Origin: Candidatus Komeilibacteria bacterium
GTDB lineage: Bacteria > Patescibacteriota > Patescibacteriia > UBA1558 > GWA2-36-10
Assembly: GCA_018656065.1 (NCBI GenBank)
Contig: JABHZY010000024.1
Location: 288,970-352,969 of the forward strand
Direction: 5' to 3'
Length of the DNA stretch: 64,000 bases
This document shows positions 15,696 through 54,860 of the stretch, piece by piece; position 1 is the stretch's first letter; every line of letters starts with the position of its first letter. Both the position numbers and the translations under genes were made by a program. The notes beneath the pieces were generated by a model. The model had not been told where the DNA came from, did not search any database, and saw only the letters and a program-made list of their open reading frames with translations.

Positions 15696-18618
<2,923 letters not shown>

Positions 18619-18621
18619 GGA

Positions 18622-19284
18622 TTATCTTTTATAAACTCTGGAAGAAACAGTAGTCTGAAAAGTATGCTTTACATTCTTAAATTTATTTGGATCATCATAG
18701 GAAGTAAGCATATTGATAGTTACTTTTGGTTGCTGATTATCTCCTCCTTCTATAAAGGGGTCGCTACTTGGAGTTATATAAAAATCTAGACCGTCAAGAC
18801 TTATATTATTTAAATTAGGTGCTAATAATCTTGTATATGTGCGAGAATTACTTTGCCAATTATCACAAATATAATCTTCATCACAATTACTTAAGGTTAT
18901 ATATCTTAATTCTGACGAAGAATCACTAGTATTATATTGAAAACTAGTTAAAGCAAATATTTGCCCATTGGCTTTTTCTAAAATAATACATTTTTCAAAA
19001 TCCCAGATATTTGTAGTTACTGTTCTTAAAACTGAATTACACCAAGCTGGATCTGGTGAATAATTAACTATAGAGCTAGTCCTAATCTCTCTAGCCATAA
19101 GTTCGAAAGCATATTGACTATCATTTAATAATTGCTGAGAAGTTGTAGTACGCATCTGACTATTATTAAAAGCTACATATATAACAGATATAGCGAAAAC
19201 TAATAAACTAAAAATAGATAATGATATCAATATTTCTATCAAAGTAAAGCCTTGATTATTTTTTACAAAATCATTCTTTATCAT
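18622..19284 (-). CDS. type IV minor pilin (prepilin-type N-terminal cleavage/methylation domain)
   Basis: NNQG|FTLIEILISLSIFSLLV leader. Confidence 0.75.
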   Translation of the reverse strand: MIKNDFVKNNQGFTLIEILISLSIFSLLVFAISVIYVAFNNSQMRTTTSQQLLNDSQYAFELMAREIRTSSIVNYSPDPAWCNSVLRTVTTNIWDFEKCIILEKANGQIFALTSFQYNTSDSSSELRYITLSNCDEDYICDNWQSNSRTYTRLLAPNLNNISLDGLDFYITPSSDPFIEGGDNQQPKVTINMLTSYDDPNKFKNVKHTFQTTVSSRVYKR

Positions 19285-19934
19285 CTCCTCCAGTTATAAA
19301 TCTGATCTATAATCTCTAAAGATTTAGTACCACCATCTTCCCATTGAACATGTGATGTAATTTGAATACCAGCATATGTATCTCCAGCATCACAAGGCAA
19401 ATCCATACCAATTATATCCTCAGTATTTTGAGGATTTATTCCCATTTCATCAATACAAATCTTTTCTAAAAATATAGCTCTAGAATAATTAGTTAATTCC
19501 AAAGTACCTGAAACAGGAACTTCATGAACATAATAATTATCAACGTCTTTATATAAATCACATTCTAGGCAAGCTGTTACACAGTCCGTAATACCTGCTG
19601 CACAAGTAGCTCCAAAAGATAACGGCCAAGAATCATTATAGTCAATATAAACATACTGATTATTAACTGTTAAACTATAATCCCAAGTACACGGAATGCC
19701 GCCACAGGTCTCATTAGCTTCTATTCTAAGCCAATTGCTATCCCTCACATTCTTAATTAATTCTATGCCCTCACGAGCTAAATTAGCAGCTATAATTTTA
19801 TCCAAATTATCACGAGAGTTATTATAATTTGCCAGAGCCAAAGAAAGGGCAGCTGAAATACCAATAGTAAAAACAGCTAGCGCTATAACCAACTCTATTA
19901 AAGTAAAACCTTGATTGTTTTTATTACTAGACAC
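19281..19934 (-). CDS. type IV minor pilin
   Basis: NNQG|FTLIELVIALAVFTIG leader. It overlaps the downstream gene by 4 nt. Confidence 0.75.
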   Translation of the reverse strand: MSSNKNNQGFTLIELVIALAVFTIGISAALSLALANYNNSRDNLDKIIAANLAREGIELIKNVRDSNWLRIEANETCGGIPCTWDYSLTVNNQYVYIDYNDSWPLSFGATCAAGITDCVTACLECDLYKDVDNYYVHEVPVSGTLELTNYSRAIFLEKICIDEMGINPQNTEDIIGMDLPCDAGDTYAGIQITSHVQWEDGGTKSLEIIDQIYNWRR

Positions 19935-19958
19935 TAAAAATAAATAAATATTTTATTA

Positions 19959-20669
19959 TTATATTGGTAATTGTATATGAACAGGATCTTCCTTGCCTCC
20001 ATCATCTGGATTAGGATCAGGTGTTGTATATCCAGCAGTACTCTTACCTAAACTAACCCATACTTTACCATCTTCGCCTTCTTCTCCTAACCTCAAGATA
20101 CCCCTATAACTTTGTTCATCATAACCTGCAAAATAGTCTATTTCTAATTCATACAAACCATGAGCATCTTCATGCATATCAGTATCTACTTCATTTTCTG
20201 ATTTAAAAGTAAAATAACGTTTAGTGGCACTAGGATAGTTTAAATCACCTAATTCTAGAAGATTATTGTCTAGAGCTACTATCTTAATAACCATGTCCTT
20301 ATCACCATCATAACCTTCTGCGCTAGTACCAGCATCTGTACCATCTATCCCTGAATCAGCAAAAATTGTATAAGTGCCAGCTGTTCTGTTTGTATAAATC
20401 CCATAACCACCAGGAGGGTATATATCTCCTAGATCTCTTACATCAGCCGTAGTAGTTGCTGAAAAATGATGAATTGTGTTAGAAGTTGCTAAATTCCTAG
20501 TATAACGAATATCAGCAGCTAACTGATCAGTAGCCATATCTACTTCATCCATAATATCTCCCTTAATATAGACTACAGAGATAATAGATATTAGAACTAT
20601 AATAGCAATTGCCATCATCAATTCTATAAAAGTCAATCCCGCTTGATTAGAAAATATTTTTTTTAACAT
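19959..20669 (-). CDS. type IV minor pilin (GspH/FimT-like position)
   Basis: SNQAG|LTFIELMMAIAIIVL leader. Confidence 0.7.
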   Translation of the reverse strand: MLKKIFSNQAGLTFIELMMAIAIIVLISIISVVYIKGDIMDEVDMATDQLAADIRYTRNLATSNTIHHFSATTTADVRDLGDIYPPGGYGIYTNRTAGTYTIFADSGIDGTDAGTSAEGYDGDKDMVIKIVALDNNLLELGDLNYPSATKRYFTFKSENEVDTDMHEDAHGLYELEIDYFAGYDEQSYRGILRLGEEGEDGKVWVSLGKSTAGYTTPDPNPDDGGKEDPVHIQLPI

Positions 20670-20688: not shown

Positions 20689-21474
20689 TTATATATAATA
20701 AAATAAAGAAAAATACCAATCTATTAAAGCTGGGCCCCACAGCATAGTAATAAAAGTTCCTAATGCCAAAAAAGTGCCGAATGGAATTTTATCTCCCAAT
20801 TCTTTGCGCTTACCCAAAAGTAAAAATATACTAATAAAACTGCCCAGAATATAAGAAATGAAAAGCGCAGTCAAAACATGCGGCCAACCTAAAATAGCTC
20901 CCATAAACACACCTAGCCTTATATCCCCTCCTCCTATCCAACGCCCTTTGGAAACTACAAACTGCAGTAAGAAAAACCCACCGCCAACTACAGCTGCAAA
21001 AATTAAATTAAATATAGAGAATCCCAAAAATAAATTAACAACTAGAGCTAAAATAATTCCTGGCCAAACTACTTTATCTAATATTAAATAATACTTAAGA
21101 TCATAAACAAAAATTATAATCAAAAATGAAACAATGGCCCACCAATCTAATAAATGTACAAACTGTAAAGCTGTAACCGAGGCTAAGTCTAAACTAGGGA
21201 TTATTTTCCAAAAAACCAAAGCAAATACTAAGCCAGTCATTAATTCCAAAACTGGATATTGATTAGAAAATCTTTTCTTACAATAACGACAACGTCCTTT
21301 TAGAGATAAATAGCTAAATAAAGGTATTAGGTCTTTAGCATATAGCCGATGTTTACAAAAAAGACACTTTGAATAGCCTTTAATAAAAGACTCTTCTCTA
21401 TGTAAACGTAAAACAACTACATTTAAGAAGCTACCTACGAAAAGCCCTAAAATAAACACAAAAGCTACTATCAT
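20689..21474 (-). CDS. pilD: prepilin peptidase / N-methyltransferase (A24 family)
   Basis: 261 aa. It has GSFLNVVVLRL, a Cys cluster (CLFCKHRL..CRYCKKR), and GGGDIRLG plus PFGTFLALG Asp-containing motifs. Confidence 0.9.
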   Translation of the reverse strand: MIVAFVFILGLFVGSFLNVVVLRLHREESFIKGYSKCLFCKHRLYAKDLIPLFSYLSLKGRCRYCKKRFSNQYPVLELMTGLVFALVFWKIIPSLDLASVTALQFVHLLDWWAIVSFLIIIFVYDLKYYLILDKVVWPGIILALVVNLFLGFSIFNLIFAAVVGGGFFLLQFVVSKGRWIGGGDIRLGVFMGAILGWPHVLTALFISYILGSFISIFLLLGKRKELGDKIPFGTFLALGTFITMLWGPALIDWYFSLFYYI

Positions 21475-21958: not shown

Positions 21959-22393
21959 TCATAAAGTTGTACAGCCAGTACTAGTGTCACAACGTACTTC
22001 AGCACCAGCTACAAAGGCTCTATAATGAAAAGCTCCACTGAAATAATAACATAAACCTTGTATAGCCCCCTCTGATAATTCTGGCCAATCAATAAGTGGA
22101 TCTAAACATAATTCTCCACCTGGATTAAAATTTCCTGAAGGAGGATATGGCGGAGGGCTCTCACAATTACCAGAATTACCAGCAAGCCCCGAACCATTCC
22201 GTATAACACTAGATGAATTATGACAAATATTGATGGCGGGCAATATAGAAGCCATTGTATGCTCTAAAGTTGCAATTTTTGCTTTATCACGAGCTGAGTT
22301 TAAATTAACTACTGCTACAGTAGATAAAATACCAATAATAGCAATAACTACTAATAACTCAACTAAAGTAAAACCTTTTGTTTCTATTTTCAT
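21959..22393 (-). CDS. type IV pilin paralog 1
   Basis: MKIETKG|FTLVELLVVIAIIGILSTVAVVNLNSARDKAK. The C-terminal half is variable and contains Cys. Confidence 0.85.
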   Translation of the reverse strand: MKIETKGFTLVELLVVIAIIGILSTVAVVNLNSARDKAKIATLEHTMASILPAINICHNSSSVIRNGSGLAGNSGNCESPPPYPPSGNFNPGGELCLDPLIDWPELSEGAIQGLCYYFSGAFHYRAFVAGAEVRCDTSTGCTTL

Positions 22394-22482: not shown

Positions 22483-22902
22483 TTATTGACAACCACTTTC
22501 ATTACAAAAGATACTTGTCGTACCATCTGTCGCTCCATAGCCAAAAGCTCCAGTTGAAGCAGTGCTACTACAATAACCCAGATAAGACCAAGCACTTTCT
22601 AGAGTCGGCCAAACTGCTGAATCAGTCCAAGCGCAGATCTCACCGCCTGCTACTGGAACATCACCAGCGTCATTACTACAATCTACCACAGTACCAGCAG
22701 TACCATCTTCTGTAAGTTCTTCGCTCTCGTCATGACAAAGTACAACCGCTGGAATCAAACCAACTAAATTACCTTTAACCGAAGCTTCTCTAGCCTTCTC
22801 CCGAGCTGAATTTAAGTTAACTACTGCTACAGTTGATAGAATACCAATGATAGCAATAACTACCAACAACTCAACTAAAGTAAAACCTTTATTATTTTTC
22901 AT
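22483..22902 (-). CDS. type IV pilin paralog 2
   Basis: MKNNKG|FTLVELLVVIAIIGILSTVAVVNLNSAREKAR; ends ..CNESGCQ. Confidence 0.85.
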   Translation of the reverse strand: MKNNKGFTLVELLVVIAIIGILSTVAVVNLNSAREKAREASVKGNLVGLIPAVVLCHDESEELTEDGTAGTVVDCSNDAGDVPVAGGEICAWTDSAVWPTLESAWSYLGYCSSTASTGAFGYGATDGTTSIFCNESGCQ

Positions 22903-23028: not shown

Positions 23029-23415
23029 TTATTGACAGCCATTCTGAGTACAAACAATAGTTGCTAATGGAGTAGTAGCACCATCAACGATACTAAAGCT
23101 CCATGAACCAAGATAAGCAGTATCCGTAGTAAGAGTTATGGAATCATAATCTTGAGGCAAAGGCGCCCAGTCTACACCAACATCAGGCGAACAGAAATCA
23201 GACCCACTTGCATAAGCTTGAATAGTGCCTGTGTCTTCATTACCACATAGAACGGCCGCTGGTAATAATCCAGCACCCCAACCCTTAGCAGCTGCCTCCT
23301 TAGCTTTTGTACGGGCAGAATTTAAATTGACTACTGCTACAGTTGATAAAATACCAATGATAGCAATAACTACCAATAACTCAACTAAAGTAAAACCTTT
23401 TTTATTTATTTTCAT
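23029..23415 (-). CDS. type IV pilin paralog 3 (probable major pilin)
   Basis: MKINKKG|FTLVELLVVIAIIGILSTVAVVNLNSARTKAK; ends ..CTQNGCQ. The start is taken at Met-7 of the track ORF because GGAGGTG lies 5 nt upstream of that ATG. Confidence 0.85.
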   Translation of the reverse strand: MKINKKGFTLVELLVVIAIIGILSTVAVVNLNSARTKAKEAAAKGWGAGLLPAAVLCGNEDTGTIQAYASGSDFCSPDVGVDWAPLPQDYDSITLTTDTAYLGSWSFSIVDGATTPLATIVCTQNGCQ

Positions 23416-23541
23416 GTTTTCACCTCCAATCACTCTAGCAAATTTTATTGATCAGTTAAGGCCCGAGATCTCCGAGGTTTTAACTTTCAATAAAAATACT
23501 ATTAATCTTAATAATTTTATTTTTAAAAAAATAACATTCTT

Positions 23542-23586: not shown

Positions 23587-23625
23587 CTTGTCATTTCGAC
23601 CGAACGGAGTGAGTGGAGAAATCTA
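23587..23625 (+). repeat. 39-bp direct repeat, copy 1 (flanks the GIY-YIG gene 3' end)
   Basis: CTTGTCATTTCGACCGAACGGAGTGAGTGGAGAAATCTA. Copy 2 at 24014-24052 differs at 2 positions. A shortened inverted copy lies at ~41483-41510. Confidence 0.9.
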
Positions 23626-23911
23626 ATAACCCCTCTGATAAATCAATCCACTTGGAATTATCTTTTTCTATTAAACTAACTTTTTTCTCACGCCTCCATT
23701 TCTTTAATTGTTTCTCTCTTTCTATTGCAATACTTATATCATCTGTATGTTCAAAATAAACTAATTTATATGTTTTATATTTACTAGAAAACCCTTTAAT
23801 TAATCCCTCTTTATGTTCTTTTACTCTTCTAGCTAAATTATTAGTTACTCCAATGTATAAAGTTTTTGATATACTAGACATTATGTATACATAAAAGTTA
23901 TATTCTTTCAT
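23591..23911 (-). CDS. GIY-YIG nuclease superfamily protein (UPF0213/YhbQ-like)
   Basis: 106 aa, YFVYIMSS..KTLYIGVTNNLARRVKEHK..KLVYFE..AIEREKQLKKWRREKK. The last ~10 codons are read out of repeat copy 1. Confidence 0.8.
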   Translation of the reverse strand: MKEYNFYVYIMSSISKTLYIGVTNNLARRVKEHKEGLIKGFSSKYKTYKLVYFEHTDDISIAIEREKQLKKWRREKKVSLIEKDNSKWIDLSEGLLDFSTHSVRSK

Positions 23912-24116: not shown

Positions 24117-25325
24117 TTAAGAAATACTTTGAGCCACTTTAAACATCGGCAGCATTATAGCTGCTACCATACCACCTACACCGACGCCCATCACAATTAA
24201 AATCAAAGGTTCAATCAAAGAAGTTAAGCCATCTACCAAATTATCAATTTCTCTACTATAAAAATCACTCAATTTCTCTAAAACATTATCTAATTTACCA
24301 GTCTTCTCACCAATAACCATCATTTGTGAAAGCATTTTAGGCATTAATTTTGATTTAACAAATAAAGTAGCTAGGGAGTTACCACCTTCTACTTCATCTA
24401 CTGTATCAAGTATTAATTTTTCATAAGCTTTATTATCCACCACCTCTGCTGTAATAGTTAAAGCAGAAGTAATTGGCACTCCACCTCTAATAAGTGTAGA
24501 TAGAGACCGAGTAAAACGTACTATATATACTTTTTTAAAAAGTGTTCCAAAAATAGGTATCTGAATTTTTAATGCATCCCAAGTAAGCTTACCAACACCT
24601 GACTTTAACCAAAATCTAAAAAGGACTATCAAGCCAGCCACTCCAAAAATTATATAATACCAATAAGAACTCATAAAATCTGAAGTGCCTATTAATATCC
24701 TCGTCACAAGTGGTAATTCAGCACCAGTTTCTTCAAGCATCTTAGTCATATTTGGCACTACAAAAGTCATCATTAAAAAACCAACTACAACCATTGATGA
24801 TATTATAAAGACTGGATAAATCATAGCACTCTTAATCCGAGAAATAAGATCGTAGTCTTTCTCCATTTGATCGGCTAAGTATTGTAATATTTCATCTAAT
24901 TTACCAGAAGTTTCACCTGACTTGACCATGGCTATATAAAAATTACTAAATGTATTTCCATGTTTAGATAAAGCACTAGAAAACCTCATACCACCTTCCA
25001 CATCATCTGCCATTTCTATTATTTTTTCTATGAAAATAGGATTAACTGTTTGTTGAGCTAATATTCTTAAAGATTGCACAATAGGCACTGTTGCCGATAT
25101 CATAACTGATAATTGACGAGAAAATATTACTAAATCTTTATGCTTAACCTTACCAATATTTATATTCCAACTCTTTCCTTGTTTTTGGCTAGTTTCTGAT
25201 AAAGCTAAAACAATTAAACCTTTTTCGTTTAACAATTCTGCAGCATCACTTTCAGTCACTGCCTCTACAGCTCCATTTGTTAATCTGCCATCATTTGTTC
25301 TTGCTCTATATTTATATATTGCCAT
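24117..25325 (-). CDS. pilC: type IV pilus platform protein PilC (GspF family)
   Basis: 402 aa. It has the duplicated GspF-domain architecture with 3 TM segments (FSRQLSVMISATVPI, FTRSLSTLIRGGVPI). Confidence 0.9.
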   Translation of the reverse strand: MAIYKYRARTNDGRLTNGAVEAVTESDAAELLNEKGLIVLALSETSQKQGKSWNINIGKVKHKDLVIFSRQLSVMISATVPIVQSLRILAQQTVNPIFIEKIIEMADDVEGGMRFSSALSKHGNTFSNFYIAMVKSGETSGKLDEILQYLADQMEKDYDLISRIKSAMIYPVFIISSMVVVGFLMMTFVVPNMTKMLEETGAELPLVTRILIGTSDFMSSYWYYIIFGVAGLIVLFRFWLKSGVGKLTWDALKIQIPIFGTLFKKVYIVRFTRSLSTLIRGGVPITSALTITAEVVDNKAYEKLILDTVDEVEGGNSLATLFVKSKLMPKMLSQMMVIGEKTGKLDNVLEKLSDFYSREIDNLVDGLTSLIEPLILIVMGVGVGGMVAAIMLPMFKVAQSIS

Positions 25326-25348: not shown

Positions 25349-26401
25349 TTAATTGAAGCCCTCTGAATCTACTGCCTGATTTCTGGCATCTTCTATACTA
25401 ATTTCTCCTACTCTTACTAATTCTGACAATGCTTTATCTAAAGAAATCATACCCTCATGTTTGGAGGTTTGCATAATACTATTTAACTGTTGTAACTTAC
25501 CATCTCTAATAGAGCTTCTAACAGCTGGAATATTTACCAATACCTCTGAAGCCATAGTTAATCCCCCACCTACTCTAGGCAGCAATCTTTGAGCTACAGC
25601 ACCTAATAGAGAGTTGGCTAATAAATCTTTACCCCATTCTTTTTTATCAACTGGTATATTACTAATAAACCTCTCTAAAGCAGATATTATTGAATCGGCA
25701 TCCATAATTAATATAATTAGTTTACCACTTTCAGATAATTCCAATATCAATTCCTCCATACCATCTTCATGCATACAGTCTACAAAAACAGCGTCTATAT
25801 CTTCATCAAGCATATTTTTGAGACCGCTGATAAAAGTATTTACATCTTTACCTACGCTTCTTTGTTCAATCACTGATTGATTATTAGAAAACAAATATTC
25901 TATTGGTTTTTCTAAAGTTTGTATATGAATTCCTTTATTTTGATTAAGTGTTTCCACTAAAGAAGCTGCTGTAGATGTACGTCCACTACCAAAAGGACCT
26001 GTGATAATAATCAAACCTTTATCTCTATTTAAAAGTTGTAATACAGCGGCTGGCACCCCTAAATCTTTTGGCGCTCTAATAAATGGAGATATCAAACGCA
26101 AAGAAACAGCTAAAAATCCTTTTTGATAAAAAACTTTAGCTCGATATCTACTACGATCAGCCCAATTATATATAGTGACTACTTCTTTTTCTTTACTTAG
26201 TCTTTCAAATTCTTCCTTAGCCAAAAAAGCTTCTGCTAAAGCAGTTAAAATATCGCCAGTCAAAATTGCTTGATCCGCTAAAGTAACCAATCTACCCTCC
26301 ACTCTAATAACTGGATTATTACCAGCTACCAAATGAACATCTGTGGCTTTTCTTTCAGCAGCCGCATTTAATATATCATTTATAATCAAAGTATCTGACA
26401 T
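25349..26401 (-). CDS. pilT: PilT-like hexameric ATPase homolog with all catalytic signatures degenerate
   Basis: 350 aa, collinear with PilT. Walker A is GPFGSGRTS (Arg at the Lys position, codon CGT 25979-25981). The Asp box is TLEKPIEY, Walker B is DAVFVDCMHED (canonical ILVGEMRD), and the His box is LIMDA (canonical GTLHT). Confidence 0.85.
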   Translation of the reverse strand: MSDTLIINDILNAAAERKATDVHLVAGNNPVIRVEGRLVTLADQAILTGDILTALAEAFLAKEEFERLSKEKEVVTIYNWADRSRYRAKVFYQKGFLAVSLRLISPFIRAPKDLGVPAAVLQLLNRDKGLIIITGPFGSGRTSTAASLVETLNQNKGIHIQTLEKPIEYLFSNNQSVIEQRSVGKDVNTFISGLKNMLDEDIDAVFVDCMHEDGMEELILELSESGKLIILIMDADSIISALERFISNIPVDKKEWGKDLLANSLLGAVAQRLLPRVGGGLTMASEVLVNIPAVRSSIRDGKLQQLNSIMQTSKHEGMISLDKALSELVRVGEISIEDARNQAVDSEGFN

Positions 26402-26405
26402 GTTT

Positions 26406-26789
26406 TTATTCTTCTTCTTTTTCTAAAATAACTTTTATCTTATTAATTACCTCAGATGGCACAAAATGAGCCTTAATTAAATAATCATCAGCTCCTAGAC
26501 CTAAACAACGATCAATGTCTTCTTTCTGAGAATAATTAGTTAATATTAAGATTCTAATACCCTTGGTATCGTCATCTCTCTTCAATTGACTAAGCACTTC
26601 AAAACCACTCATCTCTGGTAAATTAAGATCCAAGAGTATCAAATCAGGCTTTTCTTTTTGAGCAACTTTTAAACCCTGTAAACCATTAATGGCTTCCAAG
26701 ACTTTAAAACCCTCTAATTCCAACTTAGTGGAATACATCTGCAATAAAAATTCGTCGTCTTCGACAATTAGTACTTTTTTATCTTCCAT
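26406..26789 (-). CDS. single-domain response regulator (CheY/PilH-like receiver)
   Basis: 127 aa, VLIVEDDEF..DLILLDLNLPEMSG..ILTN..GADDYLIK. Confidence 0.85.
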   Translation of the reverse strand: MEDKKVLIVEDDEFLLQMYSTKLELEGFKVLEAINGLQGLKVAQKEKPDLILLDLNLPEMSGFEVLSQLKRDDDTKGIRILILTNYSQKEDIDRCLGLGADDYLIKAHFVPSEVINKIKVILEKEEE

Positions 26790-26816: not shown

Positions 26817-28553
26817 TTACATCTTGGAAACTCTCATAATTTCCTCAACGGTAGTCATTCCTAATAAAACTTTAATAACACCATCCTGTTCCATGGTAAT
26901 AAAGTTTTGTTTAGCTAATTCTTTGTCTACTTCGGCTCGATCAAAACCTTTGGCAATAATATCTTTAAATCCTCTAGTGACGTGAATAGCTTCAGCAATA
27001 GAAAGTCTACCCTTATAACCTGTCTGACCGCAGTTAGCACAGCCCTTACCTTTATAAAAAGTAAAACTATTTTTATCAACCTCTCCGTAAAAAGCTTCAT
27101 CTGGAATAGTGCTAAGATGCTCTTTAAGATTTTTTTCTACATCAGGTGGTAATTTATCTTCTGCCTTACATTTTAAACAAATTTTACGCACCAATCGTTG
27201 GGCCACTACTGCATTAAGAGTACTGGCCAATAAAAACGGCTCAACTTTCATATCAAAAAGCCTAGGAATGGCCCCAATAGCACTATTAGTATGGAGAGTA
27301 GTTAATACAGAGTGACCAGTTAAACCAGCATGAATAGCTAATTCAGCCGTTTCATTATCACGAATCTCACCAACCATGATAATATCTGGATCTTGACGAA
27401 GTAAAGCCCGAAGACCACTGGCAAAAGTAAAATTAACTTCTGGCCTTATTTGTGATTGATTAACCCCTGGAATATAATACTCGACTGGATCTTCTAAAGT
27501 AGCAATATTTACATCTTCTTGATTAAGAAATGATAAAAAAGCAAATAAAGTTGTGGATTTACCAGAACCAGTTGGACCAGTTAATAAAAACATTCCATTG
27601 GGTTTATGAACATTCTTTTCAATTACTTTAAGTTGTAGTCCTAGGAAACCTAGATCTGAAAAACTAGGTGCCTTATCTGGTGTCGCTAAAATACGCATTA
27701 CTACCTTTTCTTGCCCCATCAATGGAATAGTAGATATACGAAAATCAATATCTTTATTATGTACTTTCATACGGATACGACCATCTTGAGGTATCCTAGT
27801 TTCATCAATTTTTAAGTTAGCCATTACCTTAATCCTAGAAACTAAAGCGGAGTGAACATATATTGGTAATACTATAGTAGTGTGTAATACACCATCAATT
27901 CTATACCTTACTTTAGATTGATTACTCACTGGTTCTATATGAATATCAGAAGCACGTCCTTCTATGGCATGACGAAGTACTACGGAAACAATTTTAGAAA
28001 CTGGAGCACTTTTTACTACATCACTAACATCGCCATCTAAATCTATTTCTTCTTCTTTGGGAGCAAAAATTGCCTCAGCTGTGTCTAAGGCCTCTCCCAC
28101 TTCTTCTCCTAAAGTCTCATATTGTTTAGCTGCCGCTCTATAACTATCTTCAGAAATAATATGATATTTGACTTTAAATTTCTTTTTACGTGCCAAATAA
28201 TTAAGAGCCTCAATAGCTTTAAAATTAGTAGGATCTACTAAACCAGCTTCTATATTAGCCCCCTCTTTATTGAAGACTACCATCTTATAATTTTCAGATA
28301 GATCTTCTGGTAAAATATTCAATACTTCTGAATCAATTTTACGACCTACTAAATTAACATATTCCAAATCATAAAAAACACCCTTGGCTTGTACCCAGTC
28401 TTCGTCAGATATCAAAATAGCACGACGAGCTTGTTTTTCTAATTCATCAAAAGTAGCATACTCACTAGTAGTCAGCTCTTTATATTGCTCATCAGTTAAT
28501 AAATTTTTCTCTTTCAAAAAATCTAAAAGTTTTTGTGCTTCTTGTTTTGTCAT
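26817..28553 (-). CDS. pilB: type IV pilus assembly ATPase PilB (GspE family)
   Basis: 578 aa. It has canonical Walker A GPTGSGKSTT, Asp box LEDPVEY, Walker B IIMVGEIRD, His box TTLHTN, and a tetra-Cys motif CLKC..CANC. Confidence 0.95.
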   Translation of the reverse strand: MTKQEAQKLLDFLKEKNLLTDEQYKELTTSEYATFDELEKQARRAILISDEDWVQAKGVFYDLEYVNLVGRKIDSEVLNILPEDLSENYKMVVFNKEGANIEAGLVDPTNFKAIEALNYLARKKKFKVKYHIISEDSYRAAAKQYETLGEEVGEALDTAEAIFAPKEEEIDLDGDVSDVVKSAPVSKIVSVVLRHAIEGRASDIHIEPVSNQSKVRYRIDGVLHTTIVLPIYVHSALVSRIKVMANLKIDETRIPQDGRIRMKVHNKDIDFRISTIPLMGQEKVVMRILATPDKAPSFSDLGFLGLQLKVIEKNVHKPNGMFLLTGPTGSGKSTTLFAFLSFLNQEDVNIATLEDPVEYYIPGVNQSQIRPEVNFTFASGLRALLRQDPDIIMVGEIRDNETAELAIHAGLTGHSVLTTLHTNSAIGAIPRLFDMKVEPFLLASTLNAVVAQRLVRKICLKCKAEDKLPPDVEKNLKEHLSTIPDEAFYGEVDKNSFTFYKGKGCANCGQTGYKGRLSIAEAIHVTRGFKDIIAKGFDRAEVDKELAKQNFITMEQDGVIKVLLGMTTVEEIMRVSKM

Positions 28554-28577: not shown

Positions 28578-28940
28578 TTATCTATCACCCTCACCACTCT
28601 CATCGATTGAAATACCAGCAACAAAAGGGCTCGGATTACCAATATTTTCTTCTATATCTATGTTTATTTCCATATCTTGTAATCTATTAAATTGATCATT
28701 AGTATAAAAATCTTCCCAAATAGTTCCGGGAAAAAAATCAACATCCAAAAAATCATTTATATTACTTATAGCACCTTCTTTTACTTTATACACATACTCT
28801 ATATGTATATCTGATAGCTCTTCCTGTTCAAAATCAAGAGGTTTTAAAGTTTTAAAAGTCCAAATACCACTACCAATAGCCACTACAGCGAGTACTGCTA
28901 ATAAAATCATAATAGTTTTTTTGTCACTCTTTTTTTTCAT
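28578..28940 (-). CDS. small N-terminally anchored protein in the pilus operon, unknown function
   Basis: 120 aa with a single TM segment (IMILLAVLAVVAIGSGIW) and an acidic ectodomain. Confidence 0.4.
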   Translation of the reverse strand: MKKKSDKKTIMILLAVLAVVAIGSGIWTFKTLKPLDFEQEELSDIHIEYVYKVKEGAISNINDFLDVDFFPGTIWEDFYTNDQFNRLQDMEINIDIEENIGNPSPFVAGISIDESGEGDR

Positions 28941-28946
28941 AATAAA

Positions 28947-29705
28947 CTATTGATAATAAGTTATTAAATCTAGATTAAAAATATAACTAGCCTCTCCTTC
29001 AGCTGCTATCTCTGCAAAGCCGATAGTTTGTATATCTAACAAACGAATACTATTTTCCAGTTCTGAAATATAATTTTTAAATTGAGTATAAACATCAGCG
29101 CCAACTATTTCATCATCTTCAGATATAGTTTTTGAAACACTAAGATCAACTATTGTAGATTTGATGCCAGTTGTAGCTAATACATCATCAACTGAGACTA
29201 CAGCAGGCTCTTCATTAAAAAATTCCTCATCTAATTGCGCTGCAGCTGCCTCATCTGTTAAATTACTAGTATCAGTCACCAATCTATTACCTGTTGCTCT
29301 TTTTGGAGCACTTTCACTGATACTTATATTCAATAATTGAAAATCATGCTTTTTAGCTAATTGATCAGATATTACAAAAAGTTCAGCTGTTTGAGGAGTA
29401 TAGGGAACTATTTTTTTCAATAAATCTAAATCTTCTTGACGATTATTCATTATGTCTTTATATTCTGCCTCTAGTTGTTCTAATTTTGTAAGTAGAAGTT
29501 CATTCTTTACTTTTCTATCTAATTCTTCGGTGTTTTCTAAGTTAGCTGAACTAATACTATCTATCTTTGGTCTCAATATAAAAAAGTAACTAGAAAATAA
29601 AATAGCTAAAACAATAAAAGCTATAATAAACATTATATAACGGTTTGCCAGTAGTAATAATTCTGAAGGCTGTTCAAATTCTATTTCTTTTTTGTCTTTT
29701 CTCAT
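28947..29705 (-). CDS. PilO-like pilus alignment protein
   Basis: 252 aa with a TM segment then a coiled coil (LEQLEAEYKDIMNNRQEDLDLLKKIVP). It sits after the PilN-like gene. Confidence 0.5.
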   Translation of the reverse strand: MRKDKKEIEFEQPSELLLLANRYIMFIIAFIVLAILFSSYFFILRPKIDSISSANLENTEELDRKVKNELLLTKLEQLEAEYKDIMNNRQEDLDLLKKIVPYTPQTAELFVISDQLAKKHDFQLLNISISESAPKRATGNRLVTDTSNLTDEAAAAQLDEEFFNEEPAVVSVDDVLATTGIKSTIVDLSVSKTISEDDEIVGADVYTQFKNYISELENSIRLLDIQTIGFAEIAAEGEASYIFNLDLITYYQ

Positions 29706-31214: not shown

Positions 31215-32423
31215 TTAAATATCACGCATAGCTAAACCTACTGCGGCAGACATTCTTGGACCCACTTCTTGAAGAGCTGGTTTAAGATCCAGTGGATAAA
31301 CTATTCTATCCCAAGGATCACCGATTATAACCTGAATATTTAAAAGTTCTGCTAAATATTCTGGCAAACTTGGCAAAAATGCACTACCACCTGTTAAAAC
31401 AATTTTATCTATACGACTATTACCCTTACCCTGTCTTTGATATAATTCAAAAACGTATTTTATTTCATTAATGATAGAATTTAAAGATTTTTGAATTGTA
31501 TCTGGGACATTTTTAAATCCTCCACCTGCTAAACCAAAATCTCTCTTAAATTGTTCCGCTCTATCTTGATTTATATTAAGACTATTCATAATAGTCTTGG
31601 TAATAAATTCACCTCCTGTATCTATACCTCTATTAAGGATTGGCACTCCTTCTTCTATAATACAAATATCTGCTGTAGTAGCACCTATATCTACTATCAT
31701 TACCGTTGAATTATCATTACCAATCAAAGAACGAGATAAAGCAAAGGCTTCTGTTTCTAAACTAAGTAAATTAAACTTAGCTCTTTTAAAAATGTCTATA
31801 TAACGGGCTACTAAATTTTTAGGAGCAGCTGTTAATAATATTCTATAGTTACTATTATCTGTACTAGGCCTAATTAATTTATCTTCATTTTTTAAAGTAG
31901 CCTTTGGCCTAGCAGAACTAATATCTGCCTTAGCTTCTTTGATGCTTTGATCTAGTTCGTCTGATAAATTTTCTTTAGTTTCTTCTAACTTAAGAGACTT
32001 ATCTTCTTCTTTTTTCTTGTCTGTTTTCTTTAGTTTCTTTTTATTAAGTATTTTCCAATCCAAAATCATCTCTTCCAAAGGCACTGGAATAAACTTTTTA
32101 GCCTCCCATTTTATTGCCGAAGATAAATCTTTCTTTGGCATAGGTGGTAAATTAATAATAAAATTAAATACAGAAAAAGTAGGTAGCGCAGCCACTACTT
32201 GCCTAGTCTGAACGTTGGATTTTTGAGCAATATCGACTATATAATCAGCTATGATTTGATTATTTTTATCTATGGAGCTACTAAGCACATTTATAGCAAT
32301 ATCGGCATAACCATAGGTCTTTAATTTAGCTTGATTTTTGTAATTTTCAAGCTCAACCATCTTAATACTAGATGTGCCTATATCAATTCCTAAATAACTG
32401 GTACTACTAGAAAATAAACCCAT
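31215..32423 (-). CDS. pilM: PilM (actin-like ATPase of the pilus alignment complex) with a Lys-rich insertion
   Basis: 402 aa, YLGIDIGTSSIKMVELE, VDIGATTADICII, LTGGSA. A ~70-aa K/E-rich insert sits at aa ~125-195. Confidence 0.85.
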   Translation of the reverse strand: MGLFSSSTSYLGIDIGTSSIKMVELENYKNQAKLKTYGYADIAINVLSSSIDKNNQIIADYIVDIAQKSNVQTRQVVAALPTFSVFNFIINLPPMPKKDLSSAIKWEAKKFIPVPLEEMILDWKILNKKKLKKTDKKKEEDKSLKLEETKENLSDELDQSIKEAKADISSARPKATLKNEDKLIRPSTDNSNYRILLTAAPKNLVARYIDIFKRAKFNLLSLETEAFALSRSLIGNDNSTVMIVDIGATTADICIIEEGVPILNRGIDTGGEFITKTIMNSLNINQDRAEQFKRDFGLAGGGFKNVPDTIQKSLNSIINEIKYVFELYQRQGKGNSRIDKIVLTGGSAFLPSLPEYLAELLNIQVIIGDPWDRIVYPLDLKPALQEVGPRMSAAVGLAMRDI

Positions 32424-32505: not shown

Positions 32506-34842
32506 CTAATTCTCGCTAAATCTGGGGATAACGTTACTAAAATCTTCAAAACCAGGCGGCGGGTTAGCTTGAAGGCGTCCATCGTTAATAAAATTCTCTG
32601 ATGGTTCACCGGTAGAGACATCTATAAAATATCTTCCCAGGTCAAAATATTTTGCCATAACATTTCCAGAAACAGTCAATGAATTCATAGAACATTGCCC
32701 TGGAGTGCCCTCACAAGTAATAATCTGCCCACAACCAGGATCTGGCACTTCTGGTGACACGAAAGAACAAGAATTACCATCACCTAAAACAATAAAAGTT
32801 CCGGCTAACTTACTTACTTGCCAATTTATTTTTAAATCACCTTCTATTATCCAAACTAAAGATGGAATACGTATTAAATTCTCAACAGAACCCAACTCAT
32901 ACTCAATATCTTCATTGATAGTTAAATCACCCTCTACCCAAATTATACCTGTAGCATTTGGAATCAGGTCAGAACCACTAGGCACTGTTATGGCACTATC
33001 TACAGTTAATGGACCGCCTGAAGGCTGATAGCGATGAATAGCACCGCCCGTAGGTGTGCTAGCATTAAAAGTAGTTCCCGAAATAACTACGATATCTGAA
33101 CCATATTTATTAATATTGTTTCCATTTTCATGGTCTGTAATTAAACCATAACGATCAATACTACCTAAGGCATTAGAATATTTACCATCACTAAGACTAA
33201 AAAAATCAATCATTGGCCTATATGGAAATTCACCTTGATAAATACCAGATAAAGTACTAGAACTAACAAAATTAGTAATACTACCACCTGACTCAATAAG
33301 ATATGAAGCATTATAATGACCAAAAGGAGGTAAATATCTGCCCGTAATATCACCTCTAGAATAAACACTTCCTCCATCTACAGCTAGATAAGGTTTAGTT
33401 GATGTCACTACTCGAGGACCAAATTGAAACCAACCTAAACCATAGATCTCTCCTCCTTCATCGTAGGCATTCCAACCCCAACCACAAAGATTAGCCCTCT
33501 CTCCATCAGGATCAGGAGGAGGAGTAGGAAAAGAACCTACATCAAGATTATAATGTTTATGATCAAGCATTACGCCAGGAGAATAATAAGTCTCTTGGCA
33601 CATATTGCAACTATTAATATTACCTTGATACGTGTTAATACCACAGGTATTATCATAATTTGCTATACTACACTCACTACAATTATAAGCCCCTATTAAT
33701 TTCTTTAAGGAGCCTGTTGGACGAGAAATACATTCATCTGCTCCGCCAGCACAATCCCCTGGTGAATAATCCGTACAATCATACTCTATATCGTAATAGC
33801 AAGTGCTAATTTCTTCACAAATACCAGAAGGACAATCATCAATACTTCTACATGAAATAGTTGGGGTATCAGCACATCTACCTGGATAATAAAAATATTC
33901 TAAACAATTTTCACAACTATAGTCTATATCTGTTTGAATACATGCTCCATGTGCTACAGGTATTTCAATACAGGTACCAAAATCATAATTTCCATCATTA
34001 CAATCAGGAACAGTAAACATACAAGGACGATCTTGATTACCTGAGCATCTCCCCTCCTCTGTAGTATCACATATATTCTGATCTAAACTATCCCCTACAG
34101 CACAATTAATATCATTATGATCGTCCGTTTGAATCTCACAGCTAGCTACCCATTCTTCATAACAATTAAAACAACCTGCTATATCTTTTACGTTACCCGG
34201 AGGCGTAGAACCTGGCGGACCTATGTATGGCGCATCGTCATCTAAATCAGCTGAAGATAAAATAGGAAAACCTAATTGCCAAGCACCATCATCATAAAAT
34301 TCGCAAGCACCATTTGGACAATCAGCATCTTCTAAACAATCGTCGCCTGAATTATCACTAGCTGCATTACATGTCCAATTTTCTTGGCCAATAATACTAG
34401 CAAAAGTTGTACTAGCTAGAGCATTTAAATGTGTGGTAGAAGTTGCGACATTGGCAGTTGGCCCTCCAACAGCAGACTGTCCAGAAAAACAAATCCAGCC
34501 TAATGGATTACCACCGTTATTTAGCAGGTTACCAGACCAAGTACAACCTTTGACATTACCACTTGAATCTACTGTCAAACCATAATCATCTGGATTAGTT
34601 GGCCATTGAGTAACAACGTTATCACAACTATCTTCATATTCACCTGGAGTATCAAAATCATTATAACAATTCAAACTAAGCCACCCAGATGCTGAAGACC
34701 ATGCCCAACCTCCTATTGGATAGGGATAAGAACTTATTTCTGCATTACTAGTGACTGATTTTTGTATTAAAATCAACGAAACTGCCAAAACAGCCATAAT
34801 CACGATACGACTATAAAAATGGAAATGAAAGTCGGACTTCAT
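32506..34842 (-). CDS. large secreted Cys-rich protein, unknown function
   Basis: 778 aa with an N-terminal anchor/signal. It has repeated Trp motifs GGWAWSSASGWLSLNC, LGWICFSG and CGWGWNAY..LGWFQF. A central ~300 aa are dense in Cys, and the C-terminal third looks beta-rich. Confidence 0.6.
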   Translation of the reverse strand: MKSDFHFHFYSRIVIMAVLAVSLILIQKSVTSNAEISSYPYPIGGWAWSSASGWLSLNCYNDFDTPGEYEDSCDNVVTQWPTNPDDYGLTVDSSGNVKGCTWSGNLLNNGGNPLGWICFSGQSAVGGPTANVATSTTHLNALASTTFASIIGQENWTCNAASDNSGDDCLEDADCPNGACEFYDDGAWQLGFPILSSADLDDDAPYIGPPGSTPPGNVKDIAGCFNCYEEWVASCEIQTDDHNDINCAVGDSLDQNICDTTEEGRCSGNQDRPCMFTVPDCNDGNYDFGTCIEIPVAHGACIQTDIDYSCENCLEYFYYPGRCADTPTISCRSIDDCPSGICEEISTCYYDIEYDCTDYSPGDCAGGADECISRPTGSLKKLIGAYNCSECSIANYDNTCGINTYQGNINSCNMCQETYYSPGVMLDHKHYNLDVGSFPTPPPDPDGERANLCGWGWNAYDEGGEIYGLGWFQFGPRVVTSTKPYLAVDGGSVYSRGDITGRYLPPFGHYNASYLIESGGSITNFVSSSTLSGIYQGEFPYRPMIDFFSLSDGKYSNALGSIDRYGLITDHENGNNINKYGSDIVVISGTTFNASTPTGGAIHRYQPSGGPLTVDSAITVPSGSDLIPNATGIIWVEGDLTINEDIEYELGSVENLIRIPSLVWIIEGDLKINWQVSKLAGTFIVLGDGNSCSFVSPEVPDPGCGQIITCEGTPGQCSMNSLTVSGNVMAKYFDLGRYFIDVSTGEPSENFINDGRLQANPPPGFEDFSNVIPRFSEN

Positions 34843-34875
34843 TGATATATAAAAACTTAAATTTTAAAATAAATA

Positions 34876-36189
34876 CTATGGTATTGCTATTTCATAATGA
34901 TATTCTCTCCATGGAATAGGAGTTGATTCTTCATAATTACAAATAACCAATGCCCCTGTAGTGGAATTAAATACAGCCTTACCTACATCATCAGCACTAT
35001 TACAAGAAGAATCCGGTGGATTTGAAGTTACCTCAGGAAATTTAATATAACCATTAAACACTGATAAATCACCATTCTTAACAGCTACTCCACCGCCTAT
35101 AACAGACACTCCGCCTGCACTAACTTTTAAATCTCCACTAGCAACTTCTACGTCCCCCGTAAAATACCCAGCATAATCCCCAACTCCCTGACTAGCTAAA
35201 ATACCTATACCGCTTGCGCTATCGGCAGCAGCTGTTACTCCAACATAACCTAAACCATATACTCCAGAACCCCCTACAGCGCTATGTTCTCCATATACAC
35301 CATATTTACCAGCAGTTTCAGCTTTACCATAAATAGCGGTTTGATCATCTGACTCTACATGTAATTGATTACTTGGCGTAGTAGTTCCTATACCTACATA
35401 ACCAGCGCTATCAAATACTACATTATCATCGTTGTGCCAAAAACGAAGATCTGCGCTACCTTCATGTTGATACATACCCCAATGAGTATTAGCACCTGAT
35501 TCTATGTTGATTTCTGCATTAATTTTACTAGGCGTTTTAATATGTAAAGACTTATTAGGAGAATTAGTACCGATACCTAAATTAGCAATAGCTCCGATGT
35601 CATCAATATAAACTAAATCATTACCACTTAAATCTTTAAAATTAATATCATTTCCAACTAAATTCAAGACTGATTTATCAGAATCTAAAAATAATATACT
35701 GGTATAACTTTTCCCATACATGCCCTTAATACTAACATCATCGGCCATATTTATATTGCCATTACTAACTAATAAATTACCACCATCTATATGTAATAAC
35801 TCATCTGGAATAGCAGTGCCAATGCCAACTCTTGGATTTGTAGAACTTACATAATGAATACCCAAAGCATTTGTGCTCCAAACTTGAGTAGATTCTGCAG
35901 GCCAAGCACTCCGACAATCTCCTGTTAAACATAAATTGGCATTGTTACTTATACTTAATGCGTTTGTGGTTGTAGCAATGGTAATATTAGTACCTACAAT
36001 ATTATAATTTCCCATGCTAAGTTCAGCTTGCATTGGATTTAAAACAAGATTTCTATTTGCTACACTACCAGGTACGCTACTAGGCTCTTGCCAAGCAGCC
36101 ATAACGTATTTTTGTACCAAAGATACGCTTAAAACTGACACTATGATTATCAAAATTGATAAATGCCAATTGTTTACTTTTTTAAACAT
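34876..36189 (-). CDS. secreted GIGT-repeat fibre-like protein, paralog A
   Basis: 437 aa. It shares the leader NNWHLSxL..Q(K/Q)Y(V/A)xA with paralogs B and C. It has repeats (V/L)GIGTxxPxxxLH(I/V), Gly-rich strands (GVYGEHSAVGGSGVYG..AGYFTGDVEVASGDLKV), and a C-terminal Cys..GKAVFNSTTGALVIC loop. Confidence 0.65.
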   Translation of the reverse strand: MFKKVNNWHLSILIIIVSVLSVSLVQKYVMAAWQEPSSVPGSVANRNLVLNPMQAELSMGNYNIVGTNITIATTTNALSISNNANLCLTGDCRSAWPAESTQVWSTNALGIHYVSSTNPRVGIGTAIPDELLHIDGGNLLVSNGNINMADDVSIKGMYGKSYTSILFLDSDKSVLNLVGNDINFKDLSGNDLVYIDDIGAIANLGIGTNSPNKSLHIKTPSKINAEINIESGANTHWGMYQHEGSADLRFWHNDDNVVFDSAGYVGIGTTTPSNQLHVESDDQTAIYGKAETAGKYGVYGEHSAVGGSGVYGLGYVGVTAAADSASGIGILASQGVGDYAGYFTGDVEVASGDLKVSAGGVSVIGGGVAVKNGDLSVFNGYIKFPEVTSNPPDSSCNSADDVGKAVFNSTTGALVICNYEESTPIPWREYHYEIAIP

Positions 36190-36222
36190 AAGTTTATATT
36201 AAATTTTATTATTAACAAGCTT

Positions 36223-36231
36223 ATTATACCA
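36223..36231 (-). promoter_or_regulatory. extended -10 element (TGgTATAAT) upstream of paralog A
   Basis: The minus strand reads TGTGGTATAAT, ~33 nt upstream of ATG 36189 and just after the paralog-B terminator. Confidence 0.4.
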
Positions 36232-36252
36232 CAAAAGACTATCGAGCAACAA

Positions 36253-36287
36253 GAAAACAGTCCCAGGCTTAGCCTGGGACTGTTTTA
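36253..36287 (-). terminator. strong intrinsic terminator after paralog B
   Basis: ACAGTCCCAGGC-TTA-GCCTGGGACTGT (36257-36283), a 12-bp perfect stem. On the minus strand it is followed by UUUUCUUGUU. Confidence 0.85.
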
Positions 36288-36296
36288 TAAAAAATA

Positions 36297-38309: not shown

Positions 38310-38336
38310 AAATTTATATTAAATTATTTTTATATA

Positions 38337-50621: not shown

Positions 50622-50638
50622 ATTATATATTTATAAAA

Positions 50639-51136
50639 TCAAAAAGGGTTTAAAAAATCTCCAACGATACCTATTAATTCTCCGCCAATTCCTGGTAAAA
50701 GTTTAGCTGCCTCTATAGGACTGCTCACAAATACAGCTGCTGGGGCTAACATAAGTAATACTAGTATTACTGCCATTCCCACAATACCTGATAAAAATAT
50801 CCAAACTGGAAACTCCCACCATGCTTTATCACCAAGACCATCTAACTTAGCAATAAGCTTGGAGCCCGCTAGATTACCCCCAATTGCTTGTACTGATCGT
50901 AGTAAAAAGGTAATTATCAGACCAAATCCTGTAGCCGCACAAATCCGAGCAATAATTCTCGCAAACGCCTTCCGAGCTTCTTTTTTAAGTTTTTCTGAGC
51001 CTGCTTTTTTTAAATTTGCTGCCTTTAATTTCTCAGCCTTAGCTCTGGTTTGCCTCATCTTCTGCTGAAGCCGCCTTCTGCGTCCCGGTTCAGCGGCACC
51101 ACTACCTGAATTTGAATTGTTAGCTTCTTCTGGCAT
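50639..51136 (-). CDS. small membrane protein with a basic N-terminus and 2-3 TM segments, unknown function
   Basis: 165 aa, RRRRLQQKMRQTRAKAEKLKAANLKK, then hydrophobic helices. The 5' part of the gene is noticeably GC-richer than its surroundings. Confidence 0.4.
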   Translation of the reverse strand: MPEEANNSNSGSGAAEPGRRRRLQQKMRQTRAKAEKLKAANLKKAGSEKLKKEARKAFARIIARICAATGFGLIITFLLRSVQAIGGNLAGSKLIAKLDGLGDKAWWEFPVWIFLSGIVGMAVILVLLMLAPAAVFVSSPIEAAKLLPGIGGELIGIVGDFLNPF

Positions 51137-51139
51137 AAC

Positions 51140-51694: not shown

Positions 51695-51729
51695 ATTATT
51701 TACTCTTTTAATATATTAGTAAATCTATA

Positions 51730-54371: not shown

Positions 54372-54380
54372 AATGCTTTA

Positions 54381-54857: not shown

Positions 54858-54860
54858 AAA

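Follow-up and report, generated by a model that had tools for sequence, protein, structure and literature searches.

The window, a 64,000-nucleotide stretch (64 kb) of contig JABHZY010000024.1 from a Candidatus Komeilibacteria genome (GCA_018656065.1), is AT-rich, with ~32% GC, and carries a complete type IV pilus (T4P) locus on the minus strand. The genes of the locus follow the order pilM, a long pilN-like gene with two small genes, pilB, a stand-alone receiver gene, a pilT-like gene, pilC, a GIY-YIG open reading frame (ORF), pilins, pilD, minor pilins, ligA and gatCA. The pilT-like gene, which lies in the slot of the PilT retraction ATPase, is the subject of this study. The coordinates of all features are collected in Table 1.

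Table 1. Features of the T4P locus, motifs of the PilT-like protein and orphan canonical pilT genes. Positions refer to the window unless a locus label precedes them.
Feature	Position	Strand	Basis or remarks
pilT-like gene, 350 aa, ATG start	25349..26401	(-)	homology, motif states, ratio of nonsynonymous to synonymous substitution rates (dN/dS), AlphaFold2 (AF2) model
Walker A/P-loop GPFGSGRTS, residues 135-143	25973..25999	(-)	G135, P136, G140 and T142 kept; Lys replaced by Arg (R141)
Asp box TLEKPIEY, residues 162-169	25895..25918	(-)	E164, P166 and E168 invariant; canonical D165 replaced by Lys
Degenerate atypical Walker B DAVFVDCMHED, residues 203-213	25763..25795	(-)	G-E-M-R replaced by D-C-M-H; catalytic Glu absent
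Degenerate His box GKLIILIMDAD, residues 226-236	25694..25726	(-)	H227 to K, T232 to I, H234 to D, T235 to A
N-terminal-domain segment with putative arginine fingers R85/R87 and R102	26096..26149	(-)	99-100% conserved in crown and canonical clades
pilM	31215..32423	(-)	
pilN-like gene, 491 aa	29736-31211	(-)	weak PilN match; slot of pilN/pilO/x in canonical loci
Two small genes, family not assigned	28947-29705, 28578-28940	(-)	synteny; pilN/pilO/x region of canonical loci
pilB, extension ATPase	26817..28553	(-)	four canonical boxes
CheY/DivK-type stand-alone receiver	26406..26789	(-)	
pilC, platform protein (T2SSF)	24117..25325	(-)	
Three pilins	23029-23433, 22483-22902, 21959-22393	(-)	
pilD, prepilin peptidase	20689-21474	(-)	
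Minor-pilin/PilX_N-type genes	17692-20669	(-)	by size and order; synteny with L003 and L001
Orphan pilT genes	L069:8619-9674, L075:9995-11035, L063:7319-8239		no pilB/pilC within reach

The product of the pilT-like gene matched the Pfam family T2SSE (PF00437) with an E-value of 5.3e-17 and 62 bits, passing the cut-off of 24.9. The TIGR01420 profile (pilT_fam, PilT/PilU family) spanned the protein end to end, from profile position 2 to 340 of 343 and from residue 7 to 345; the score of 282.7 bits lay under the curated cut-off of 319.1. Among solved structures in the Protein Data Bank (PDB), the best phmmer match was Aquifex aeolicus PilT (2ewv, E 1e-67, 231 bits), followed by the PilTs of Thermus, Geobacter and Pseudomonas, with residues 6-345 aligned. 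PilTs in this set scored 160-232 bits; PilU (9n32) reached 137 bits, and a chain annotated as PilT/PilU family (10my) 139 bits. By score the protein is nearer to PilT than to PilU, and its non-canonical Walker boxes do not fit the definition of PilU either.

The architecture is that of a full-length two-domain PilT, with no PilB-type N-terminal domains or zinc finger. An AF2 model derived from 73 family members had a predicted local distance difference test (pLDDT) of 93.7 and a predicted template modelling (pTM) score of 0.89. Its top PDB match was ATP-bound PilT4 (6ojx), with a template modelling (TM) score of 0.91 and a root-mean-square deviation of 2.1 Å over 344 columns. According to the model, the whole PilT fold is preserved without insertions. 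The region of the AIRNLIRE motif reads AVRSSIRD. A293 and I298 are conserved; at the positions of Asn, Leu, Arg and Glu the residue is altered or varies among members of the clade described below.

The alignment with Aquifex PilT was ungapped across all four catalytic boxes, so the boxes cannot be shifted onto canonical residues. A realignment of the boxes was considered and rejected: no register restored canonical residues in the profile (TIGR01420) or pairwise (PDB PilT) alignments. Walker A changes from GPTGSGKST in Aquifex to GPFGSGRTS, and the R141 codon, CGT at 25979-25981, differs from AAA/AAG at all three positions. Arg occupies position 141 in 100% of the crown clade that holds the protein (n = 92), versus Lys in 100% of canonical PilT. 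The Asp box TIEDPIEY becomes TLEKPIEY, and position 165 is variable in the clade. The Walker B segment DVIFVGEMRD becomes DAVFVDCMHE; most crown-clade members have S/A/C/G at position 209, nearly all have lost the Walker B Glu, and E212 is 99% conserved. The His box GHLVFGTLHTN becomes GKLIILIMDAD. Neither His-box histidine occurs in any of the 92 crown sequences, and the replacements are themselves conserved (K227 in 92%, D234 in 88%, A235 in 91% and M233 in 97%).

Much of the binding scaffold is retained, namely R85/R87/R102, E164, P166, E168, Q180, R181, D186 and D201. The spacing of 15 between R87 and R102 equals that of R271/R286 in GmPilB; the assignment as putative arginine fingers was made from spacing and conservation, not from a residue-level alignment to GmPilB. 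Substitution of the P-loop Lys by Arg commonly keeps nucleotide binding and abolishes hydrolysis. As judged from the sequence, the phosphate- and Mg-binding and inter-subunit elements are kept and the residues for hydrolysis and coupling are replaced, with several replacements conserved. In the superfamily, both Walker motifs (A and B) and the catalytic Glu are completely conserved, and a His-box His is highly conserved (McCallum 2017, PMC5424180). PilB structures indicate that the Asp-box Glu coordinates Mg2+, that of the two Arg fingers one touches the phosphates and the second pairs with the Glu of the Asp box, that a His-box His contacts the gamma-phosphate as well as mediating cooperativity between chains, and that only at the closed ATP interface is the catalytic Glu positioned for hydrolysis (PMC5424180). 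Substitutions in Walker A or B inactivate PilT in vivo (PMC6762196).

A sequence-only reading had described the protein as collinear with PilT-type ATPases, which the full-length TIGR01420 and Aquifex PilT alignments bear out. The alignment and codon check found its Walker A Arg and CGT codon exactly as described, the changes in the other three boxes reappeared in the ungapped Aquifex alignment, and the profile-driven shift that it had named as a way to be wrong did not occur in the TIGR01420 or PDB PilT alignments. Its statement that every catalytic signature is mutated stood for the Walker A Lys, the Walker B Glu and the His-box His, but not for the P-loop glycines, T142, E164/E168 and R85/R87/R102, all of which are kept. 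The gene had also been called the only PilT-like one in the locus. This holds for the locus and the window, since a phmmer search of all six-frame ORFs found no T2SSE ATPase in the 64 kb other than pilB and the pilT-like gene; none was found in ~10 kb beyond either window end. The degeneracy is specific to this gene, as had been proposed: PilB of the window reads GPTGSGKST / TLEDPVEY / DIIMVGEIRD / GHSVLTTLHTN, and PilB scored KDEHH in all loci.

Among 5.8 billion proteins searched, ~95 clusters matched the PilT-like protein at 57-100% identity, after which identity dropped to ~45%. All members of this close group had a GSGR Walker A, a non-Asp box of the form TLExPIEY and a His-less box, and most had MDAD. 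Their source names all belonged to the Candidate Phyla Radiation (CPR/Patescibacteria), namely Komeilibacteria, Parcubacteria, Nomurabacteria and Kerfeldbacteria. An exhaustive HMMER search against 1.84 billion cluster representatives added dozens more clusters of ~355-aa proteins at 33-47% identity with mixed degenerate boxes; fully canonical PilTs began only at ~36% identity.

In a neighbour-joining (NJ) tree of 334 sequences rooted on PilB, 186 of the 191 non-canonical sequences fell into one pure clade that included the PilT-like protein and had canonical CPR PilTs as its neighbours. The root-to-tip distance was 2.30 in this clade versus 1.74 in canonical PilT. From the base of the clade towards the protein, the His box was gone almost throughout; basal groups had a mixture of Lys and Arg in Walker A and mostly kept the Walker B Glu, and in the crown group the Walker A Arg was fixed and the Walker B Glu lost. 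Read from these sequences, the loss is stepwise: the His box went first, then Arg was fixed in place of Lys and the Glu was lost.

Gene order was conserved along with the substitutions. Ortholog loci at 91%, 81%, 73%, 60% and ~44% identity had the same order, from pilM through pilB, receiver, pilT-like gene, pilC, pilins, pilD and minor pilins to ligA and gatCA, and the order pilB-receiver-pilT-like-pilC was present in the window and 16 distinct ortholog loci. The canonical PilT P0203 from a Campbellbacteria metagenome-assembled genome (MAG) had thousands of relatives called PilT in Paceibacterota and Parcubacteria, and the canonical loci L008 and L009 showed identical gene order with a canonical PilT in the same slot. 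Consequently, the degenerate gene is a positional ortholog of canonical CPR PilT and not an added paralog. An extra paralog beside a canonical in-locus PilT was rejected: the gene itself fills the PilT slot, and in no degenerate locus did the 10 kb on either side contain a third T2SSE ATPase. In Saccharibacteria TM7x, the Walker A/B boxes of the in-locus PilT are reported to be conserved (PMC11623550); therefore, the degeneracy is lineage-specific within CPR.

At L017:9983-11053, on the 1.15-Mb contig JBMOKY010000001.1, a degenerate PilT-like gene of state K/R/D/R/E has pth and a pilM homolog as neighbours; pilB, pilC and a receiver gene were all absent within 10 kb, an arrangement unlike all other degenerate loci. 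In the clade-2 locus at L007:7795-9550, pilB is split into ORFs of 465 and 130 aa, by a frameshift or a MAG assembly error. Loci L010, L016 and L023 are labelled 'uncultured Gammaproteobacteria bacterium' and carry the CPR-type order pilB-receiver-degenerate pilT-pilC; the labels are probably wrong. Tandem double-PilT fusions of 700-1024 aa were also encountered (P0122, P0124, P0125, P0127, P0133, P0134, P0136 and P0241). In P0136 and P0241 a degenerate N-terminal copy is joined to a canonical C-terminal one, as if a pseudo-ATPase and an ATPase had been linked covalently. N-terminal extensions of 150-400 aa occurred in many canonical PilTs.

Pairwise dN/dS of the pilT-like gene was 0.079 between the window and the 91% ortholog (dS 0.53). 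More distant pairs gave 0.065-0.10, but their dS is near saturation, so the closest pair counts most. Control genes of the same loci gave 0.05-0.06 (pilB), 0.05-0.07 (pilC), 0.08-0.09 (pilM) and 0.07-0.16 (pilD), so the pilT-like gene is on par with pilM and pilD and slightly above pilB and pilC. The reading frame was intact in every ortholog locus examined.

The number of sites conserved at 90% or more was 122 in the crown clade versus 124 in canonical PilT. These comprised 53 shared sites, 11 conserved in both with a different residue (including K141R, H227K, L233M, T235A and Q256W), 60 conserved only in canonical PilT (including D165, G208, E209, M210, R211, T232 and H234) and 58 only in the crown clade (including W80, K94, S139, E212 and G214). 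Comparison of locus pairs revealed a change of rank. Between canonical CPR loci, PilT was more conserved than PilB in 75 of 78 pairs and than PilC in 77 of 78; between degenerate loci the counts were 0 of 78 and 3 of 78. PilT is thus the most conserved of PilB, PilT and PilC in canonical loci and the least conserved in degenerate ones. On this sequence evidence, constraint on the pilT-like gene is redirected, not abolished, yet partly released.

The sequence-only reading had favoured a retained non-catalytic role over decay, and this inference appears well founded: the substitutions are shared by orthologs (Walker A Arg in 92 of 92 crown sequences, His-box His in 0 of 92, Walker B Glu lost in nearly all), the ORF is intact in all ortholog loci, and dN/dS lies at 0.06-0.10, far from the value of 1 expected of a decaying gene. 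A pseudogene that is intact here by chance would agree with the mutated catalytic boxes, the TIGR01420 score under the cut-off and the longer root-to-tip distance, but its probability is close to nil, as it is effectively refuted by ~95 intact ortholog clusters at 57-100% identity with dozens of further 50%-identity clusters, the low dN/dS, the 122 highly conserved sites, conserved synteny and the confident AF2 fold.

The gene upstream of the pilT-like gene encodes a DivK/CheY-type receiver of 127 aa, whose phospho-acceptor Asp aligns with that of DivK and whose stop codon precedes the pilT-like ATG by 4 nt. It was the most constrained gene of the locus, with dN/dS of 0.02-0.08. Among the loci listed from species-representative genomes and metagenomes, a receiver gene stood directly upstream of PilT in each of the 16 distinct loci with a degenerate in-locus PilT; canonical CPR loci had it there in 13 of 20 cases, and non-CPR loci never did. 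This distribution makes the receiver an ancestral CPR feature that is obligatory in the degenerate lineage.

Descent, fold and genomic position all mark the PilT-like protein as an ortholog of PilT. It lacks three catalytic features that define the family and falls short of the curated family score, and the term pseudo-ATPase, derived from PilT, suits it better than PilT ATPase. It has the features of the pseudo-ATPase class: clear homology to an active enzyme, missing catalytic residues and purifying selection, with the loss of turnover predicted from sequence. In our assessment, the in-locus PilT ortholog of a large CPR/Patescibacteria lineage is likely, though by no means certainly, a pseudo-ATPase maintained by selection for a non-motor role at the PilC/PilM platform, be it clutch, brake or adaptor. 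In the mechanism we propose, the protein would still form a PilT-like hexamer, which would probably still bind nucleotide and hydrolyse little or no ATP. The hexamer would dock on the PilC/PilM platform in competition with PilB. In the manner of a clutch or gate, the docked hexamer would end PilB-driven extension and leave the pilus either held or free to retract slowly without power. Alternatively, the protein may be an adaptor that connects another motor to the platform. Which state or ring is engaged could be under the control of the CheY-like receiver, whose gene lies 4 nt upstream.

Several points weigh against the pseudo-ATPase interpretation. The loss of hydrolysis is deduced from motifs and from mutants in other species, and weak or unconventional hydrolysis is possible because Arg141 keeps the positive charge and the acidic residues E164, E168, E212 and, in this protein, D208 are nearby. 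We infer, moreover, the hexamer, nucleotide binding, platform docking and receiver control. The NJ tree is a crude one, in which long-branch attraction could inflate the monophyly of the non-canonical clade. That clade may not be uniformly inactive, since its basal members still have the Lys and/or the Walker B Glu. Finally, the idea that the receiver is specific to the degenerate state was ruled out, as it accompanies 13 of the 20 canonical CPR loci.

A variant of the pseudo-ATPase interpretation, which we regard as rather unlikely, is that the degenerate in-locus PilT serves as a bridge docked on the platform, ATP being hydrolysed by a separate canonical PilT from elsewhere in the genome. 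PilT with Walker A or B mutations still supports PilU-driven retraction, and PilU needs PilT (PMC6762196, PMC6821130, 10.1101/2025.10.30.685630); because PilU works through ATPase-dead PilT in Vibrio and Acinetobacter, a naturally dead PilT could be an adaptor as well. A candidate pool of partners exists, as orphan canonical PilTs form a large CPR family with ~45% identity to in-locus canonical CPR PilT and source names that include Falkowbacteria, the Parcubacteria group and the Patescibacteria group. In Patescibacteria MAGs these genes lie among housekeeping genes, in the orders nusB-rnc-pilT (L069, L063) and mgsA-queH-pilT (L075). CPR genomes can thus carry a separate orphan canonical PilT, and the pilT-like gene may not be the only PilT of this organism genome-wide.

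Against a bridge, no second PilT was present in the window or ~10 kb beyond either end. The anchor genes of orphan PilTs (nusB, rnc, mgsA and queH) were all missing from the window. Among the matches listed, no genome had both a degenerate and an orphan canonical PilT; the samples were small, which makes this absence uninformative. The orphan proteins are of PilT length (347-352 aa) with a PilT-type AIANLIRE or AIANLIRR motif, and they have no obvious PilU-like C-terminal extension.

Another explanation, which we consider improbable, is that the protein is still a working ATPase with a rewired active site, in which Arg141 stands in for Lys and E212, E164 or D208 acts as general base, giving a slower retraction motor. 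Conservation is strong across the pocket, replacements included, neither the Arg fingers nor the Mg-coordinating Glu has been lost, and dN/dS is as low as in bona fide machinery genes. Basal members that keep the Walker B Glu, and sometimes the Lys, suggest a gradient instead of an on/off loss. However, the Walker A Lys, the catalytic Glu and the His-box His are all changed, the first two being reported as completely conserved superfamily-wide (PMC5424180), and PilT is inactivated in vivo when either Walker motif is substituted (PMC6762196). Since positions 208-211 are variable in the crown clade, there is no conserved substitute base at the catalytic position. Moreover, the fall of PilT from the most to the least conserved of PilB, PilT and PilC is expected if catalytic constraint has been lost.

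The pseudo-ATPase interpretation bears on how CPR surface biology is described. Among the surface machines of CPR, type IV pili are the best conserved, and they have been implicated in host attachment, twitching and DNA uptake. CPR genome papers routinely list PilT as the retraction ATPase or a twitching gene, and annotation pipelines already disagree on the name of the present gene. If the in-locus PilT cannot hydrolyse ATP, inferences of powered retraction and twitching for these lineages are unsafe. If true, the interpretation would also add independent evolutionary evidence for an essential non-catalytic role of PilT at the platform, be it displacing PilB, gating PilC or bridging a motor, a role that has so far rested on engineered Walker mutants in Vibrio and Acinetobacter. 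The natural intermediates (His box, then Lys to Arg, then Glu) form a panel in which the role of each motif could be dissected. A further-reaching proposal, which we put forward tentatively and with somewhat less than even expectation, is that a large part of CPR (Komeilibacteria, Kerfeldbacteria, Buchananbacteria, Nomurabacteria and Parcubacteria MAGs) has turned its only in-locus retraction motor into this protein, which would then be the first natural lineage-wide pseudo-ATPase of the PilT/secretion-ATPase superfamily. A nucleotide-binding, non-hydrolysing hexamer and a co-translated receiver would constitute a phosphorylation-controlled clutch on PilC, and these episymbionts would extend pili by PilB and release or hold them without powered retraction.

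Further observations concern the rest of the pilus locus. The GIY-YIG nuclease ORF (23591-23911, minus strand) lies between pilC and the pilins; L003 and L004 have a similar ORF, and the canonical locus L008 has one at another place. The nuclease ORF looks like a mobile element of the homing-endonuclease type within the pilus locus. The pilN-like gene encodes 491 aa in the window, 478-516 aa in crown-clade loci and 328-339 aa in L006 and L007, and 187-215 aa in loci with canonical CPR PilT (L008:6481-7128, L009:6294-6857). Given this difference in length, the platform may have co-evolved with the degenerate PilT. Upstream of pilM, four large ORFs of 778, 437, 670 and 464 aa (32506-39731, minus strand) had no Pfam match, and the same slot in ortholog loci held ORFs of similar size, also without a Pfam match (775/774 aa in L001; 414/751 aa in L003).

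Outside the pilus locus, a cluster resembling conjugation or type IV secretion system (T4SS) genes was located at 49398-56261 on the minus strand. It includes PrgI-like (54381-54857) and TraC-like (53691-54371) genes and a VirB4-type DUF87/TraG P-loop ATPase gene (51730-53691), and was assigned by the same gene sizes and order as in L090, the flanking genes being left without assignment. The right end of the window (60809-63991) encodes part of a 1258-aa protein without a Pfam match, and just beyond it (L090:1-9989) lies the gene of a giant 2902-aa protein with a faint CBM_4_9 match; both are probably large surface proteins. At 4944-6218 and 6237-8201, on the minus strand, there are an EamA-family transporter fused to a riboflavin kinase domain and an adjoining DUF333 and papain-family cysteine protease.

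Comparison with known systems places the protein closest to PilT retraction ATPases (TIGR01420; 2ewv, 3jvv, 6ojx), with which it shares length, two-domain fold, position between pilB and pilC and 30-36% identity. As in PilT, the glycines of the P-loop, both glutamates of the Asp box and the putative Arg fingers are present; the segment AVRSSIRD resembles AIRNLIRE in part. Unlike PilT, it is without the Walker A Lys, the Asp-box Asp, the Walker B Gly-Glu and both His-box histidines. The Prokaryotic Genome Annotation Pipeline (PGAP) calls its orthologs 'TadA' or 'T2SS/T4P/T4SS family ATPase', not PilT. The nearest canonical relatives in the tree are the in-locus CPR PilTs (P0203 of Campbellbacteria, P0373, P0380 and TM7x), which keep K/D/E/H/H and have ~31-35% identity to the protein. 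Their loci have the same order, pilM-pilN-pilO-x-pilB-(receiver)-pilT-pilC-pilins-pilD...ligA-gatCA, often with the same receiver.

The closest functional parallel is the engineered ATPase-dead PilT of Vibrio cholerae and Acinetobacter baylyi (Walker A K136/Walker B E204), which does not hydrolyse ATP, yet is needed and bridges PilU (PMC6762196, PMC6821130, 10.1101/2025.10.30.685630). In contrast to these laboratory mutants, which have pilU adjoining, the state described here is natural, ancient and lineage-wide, with no pilU in the locus and a partner motor that is only a candidate. A prior description of a naturally degenerate PilT lineage was not found in the literature covered, mostly open-access papers. 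Retraction without a motor offers another comparison: two reports describe it in gonococcal delta-pilT cells, where it is slow and weak at ~5 pN (10.1101/497933), and in competence pili of V. cholerae (10.1101/2021.03.09.434644). Because pili elsewhere retract slowly without a hydrolysing motor, a non-hydrolysing gate or clutch is physically plausible. Those motor-independent systems lack PilT or have it deleted, whereas the lineage examined here retains a PilT-shaped protein under selection.

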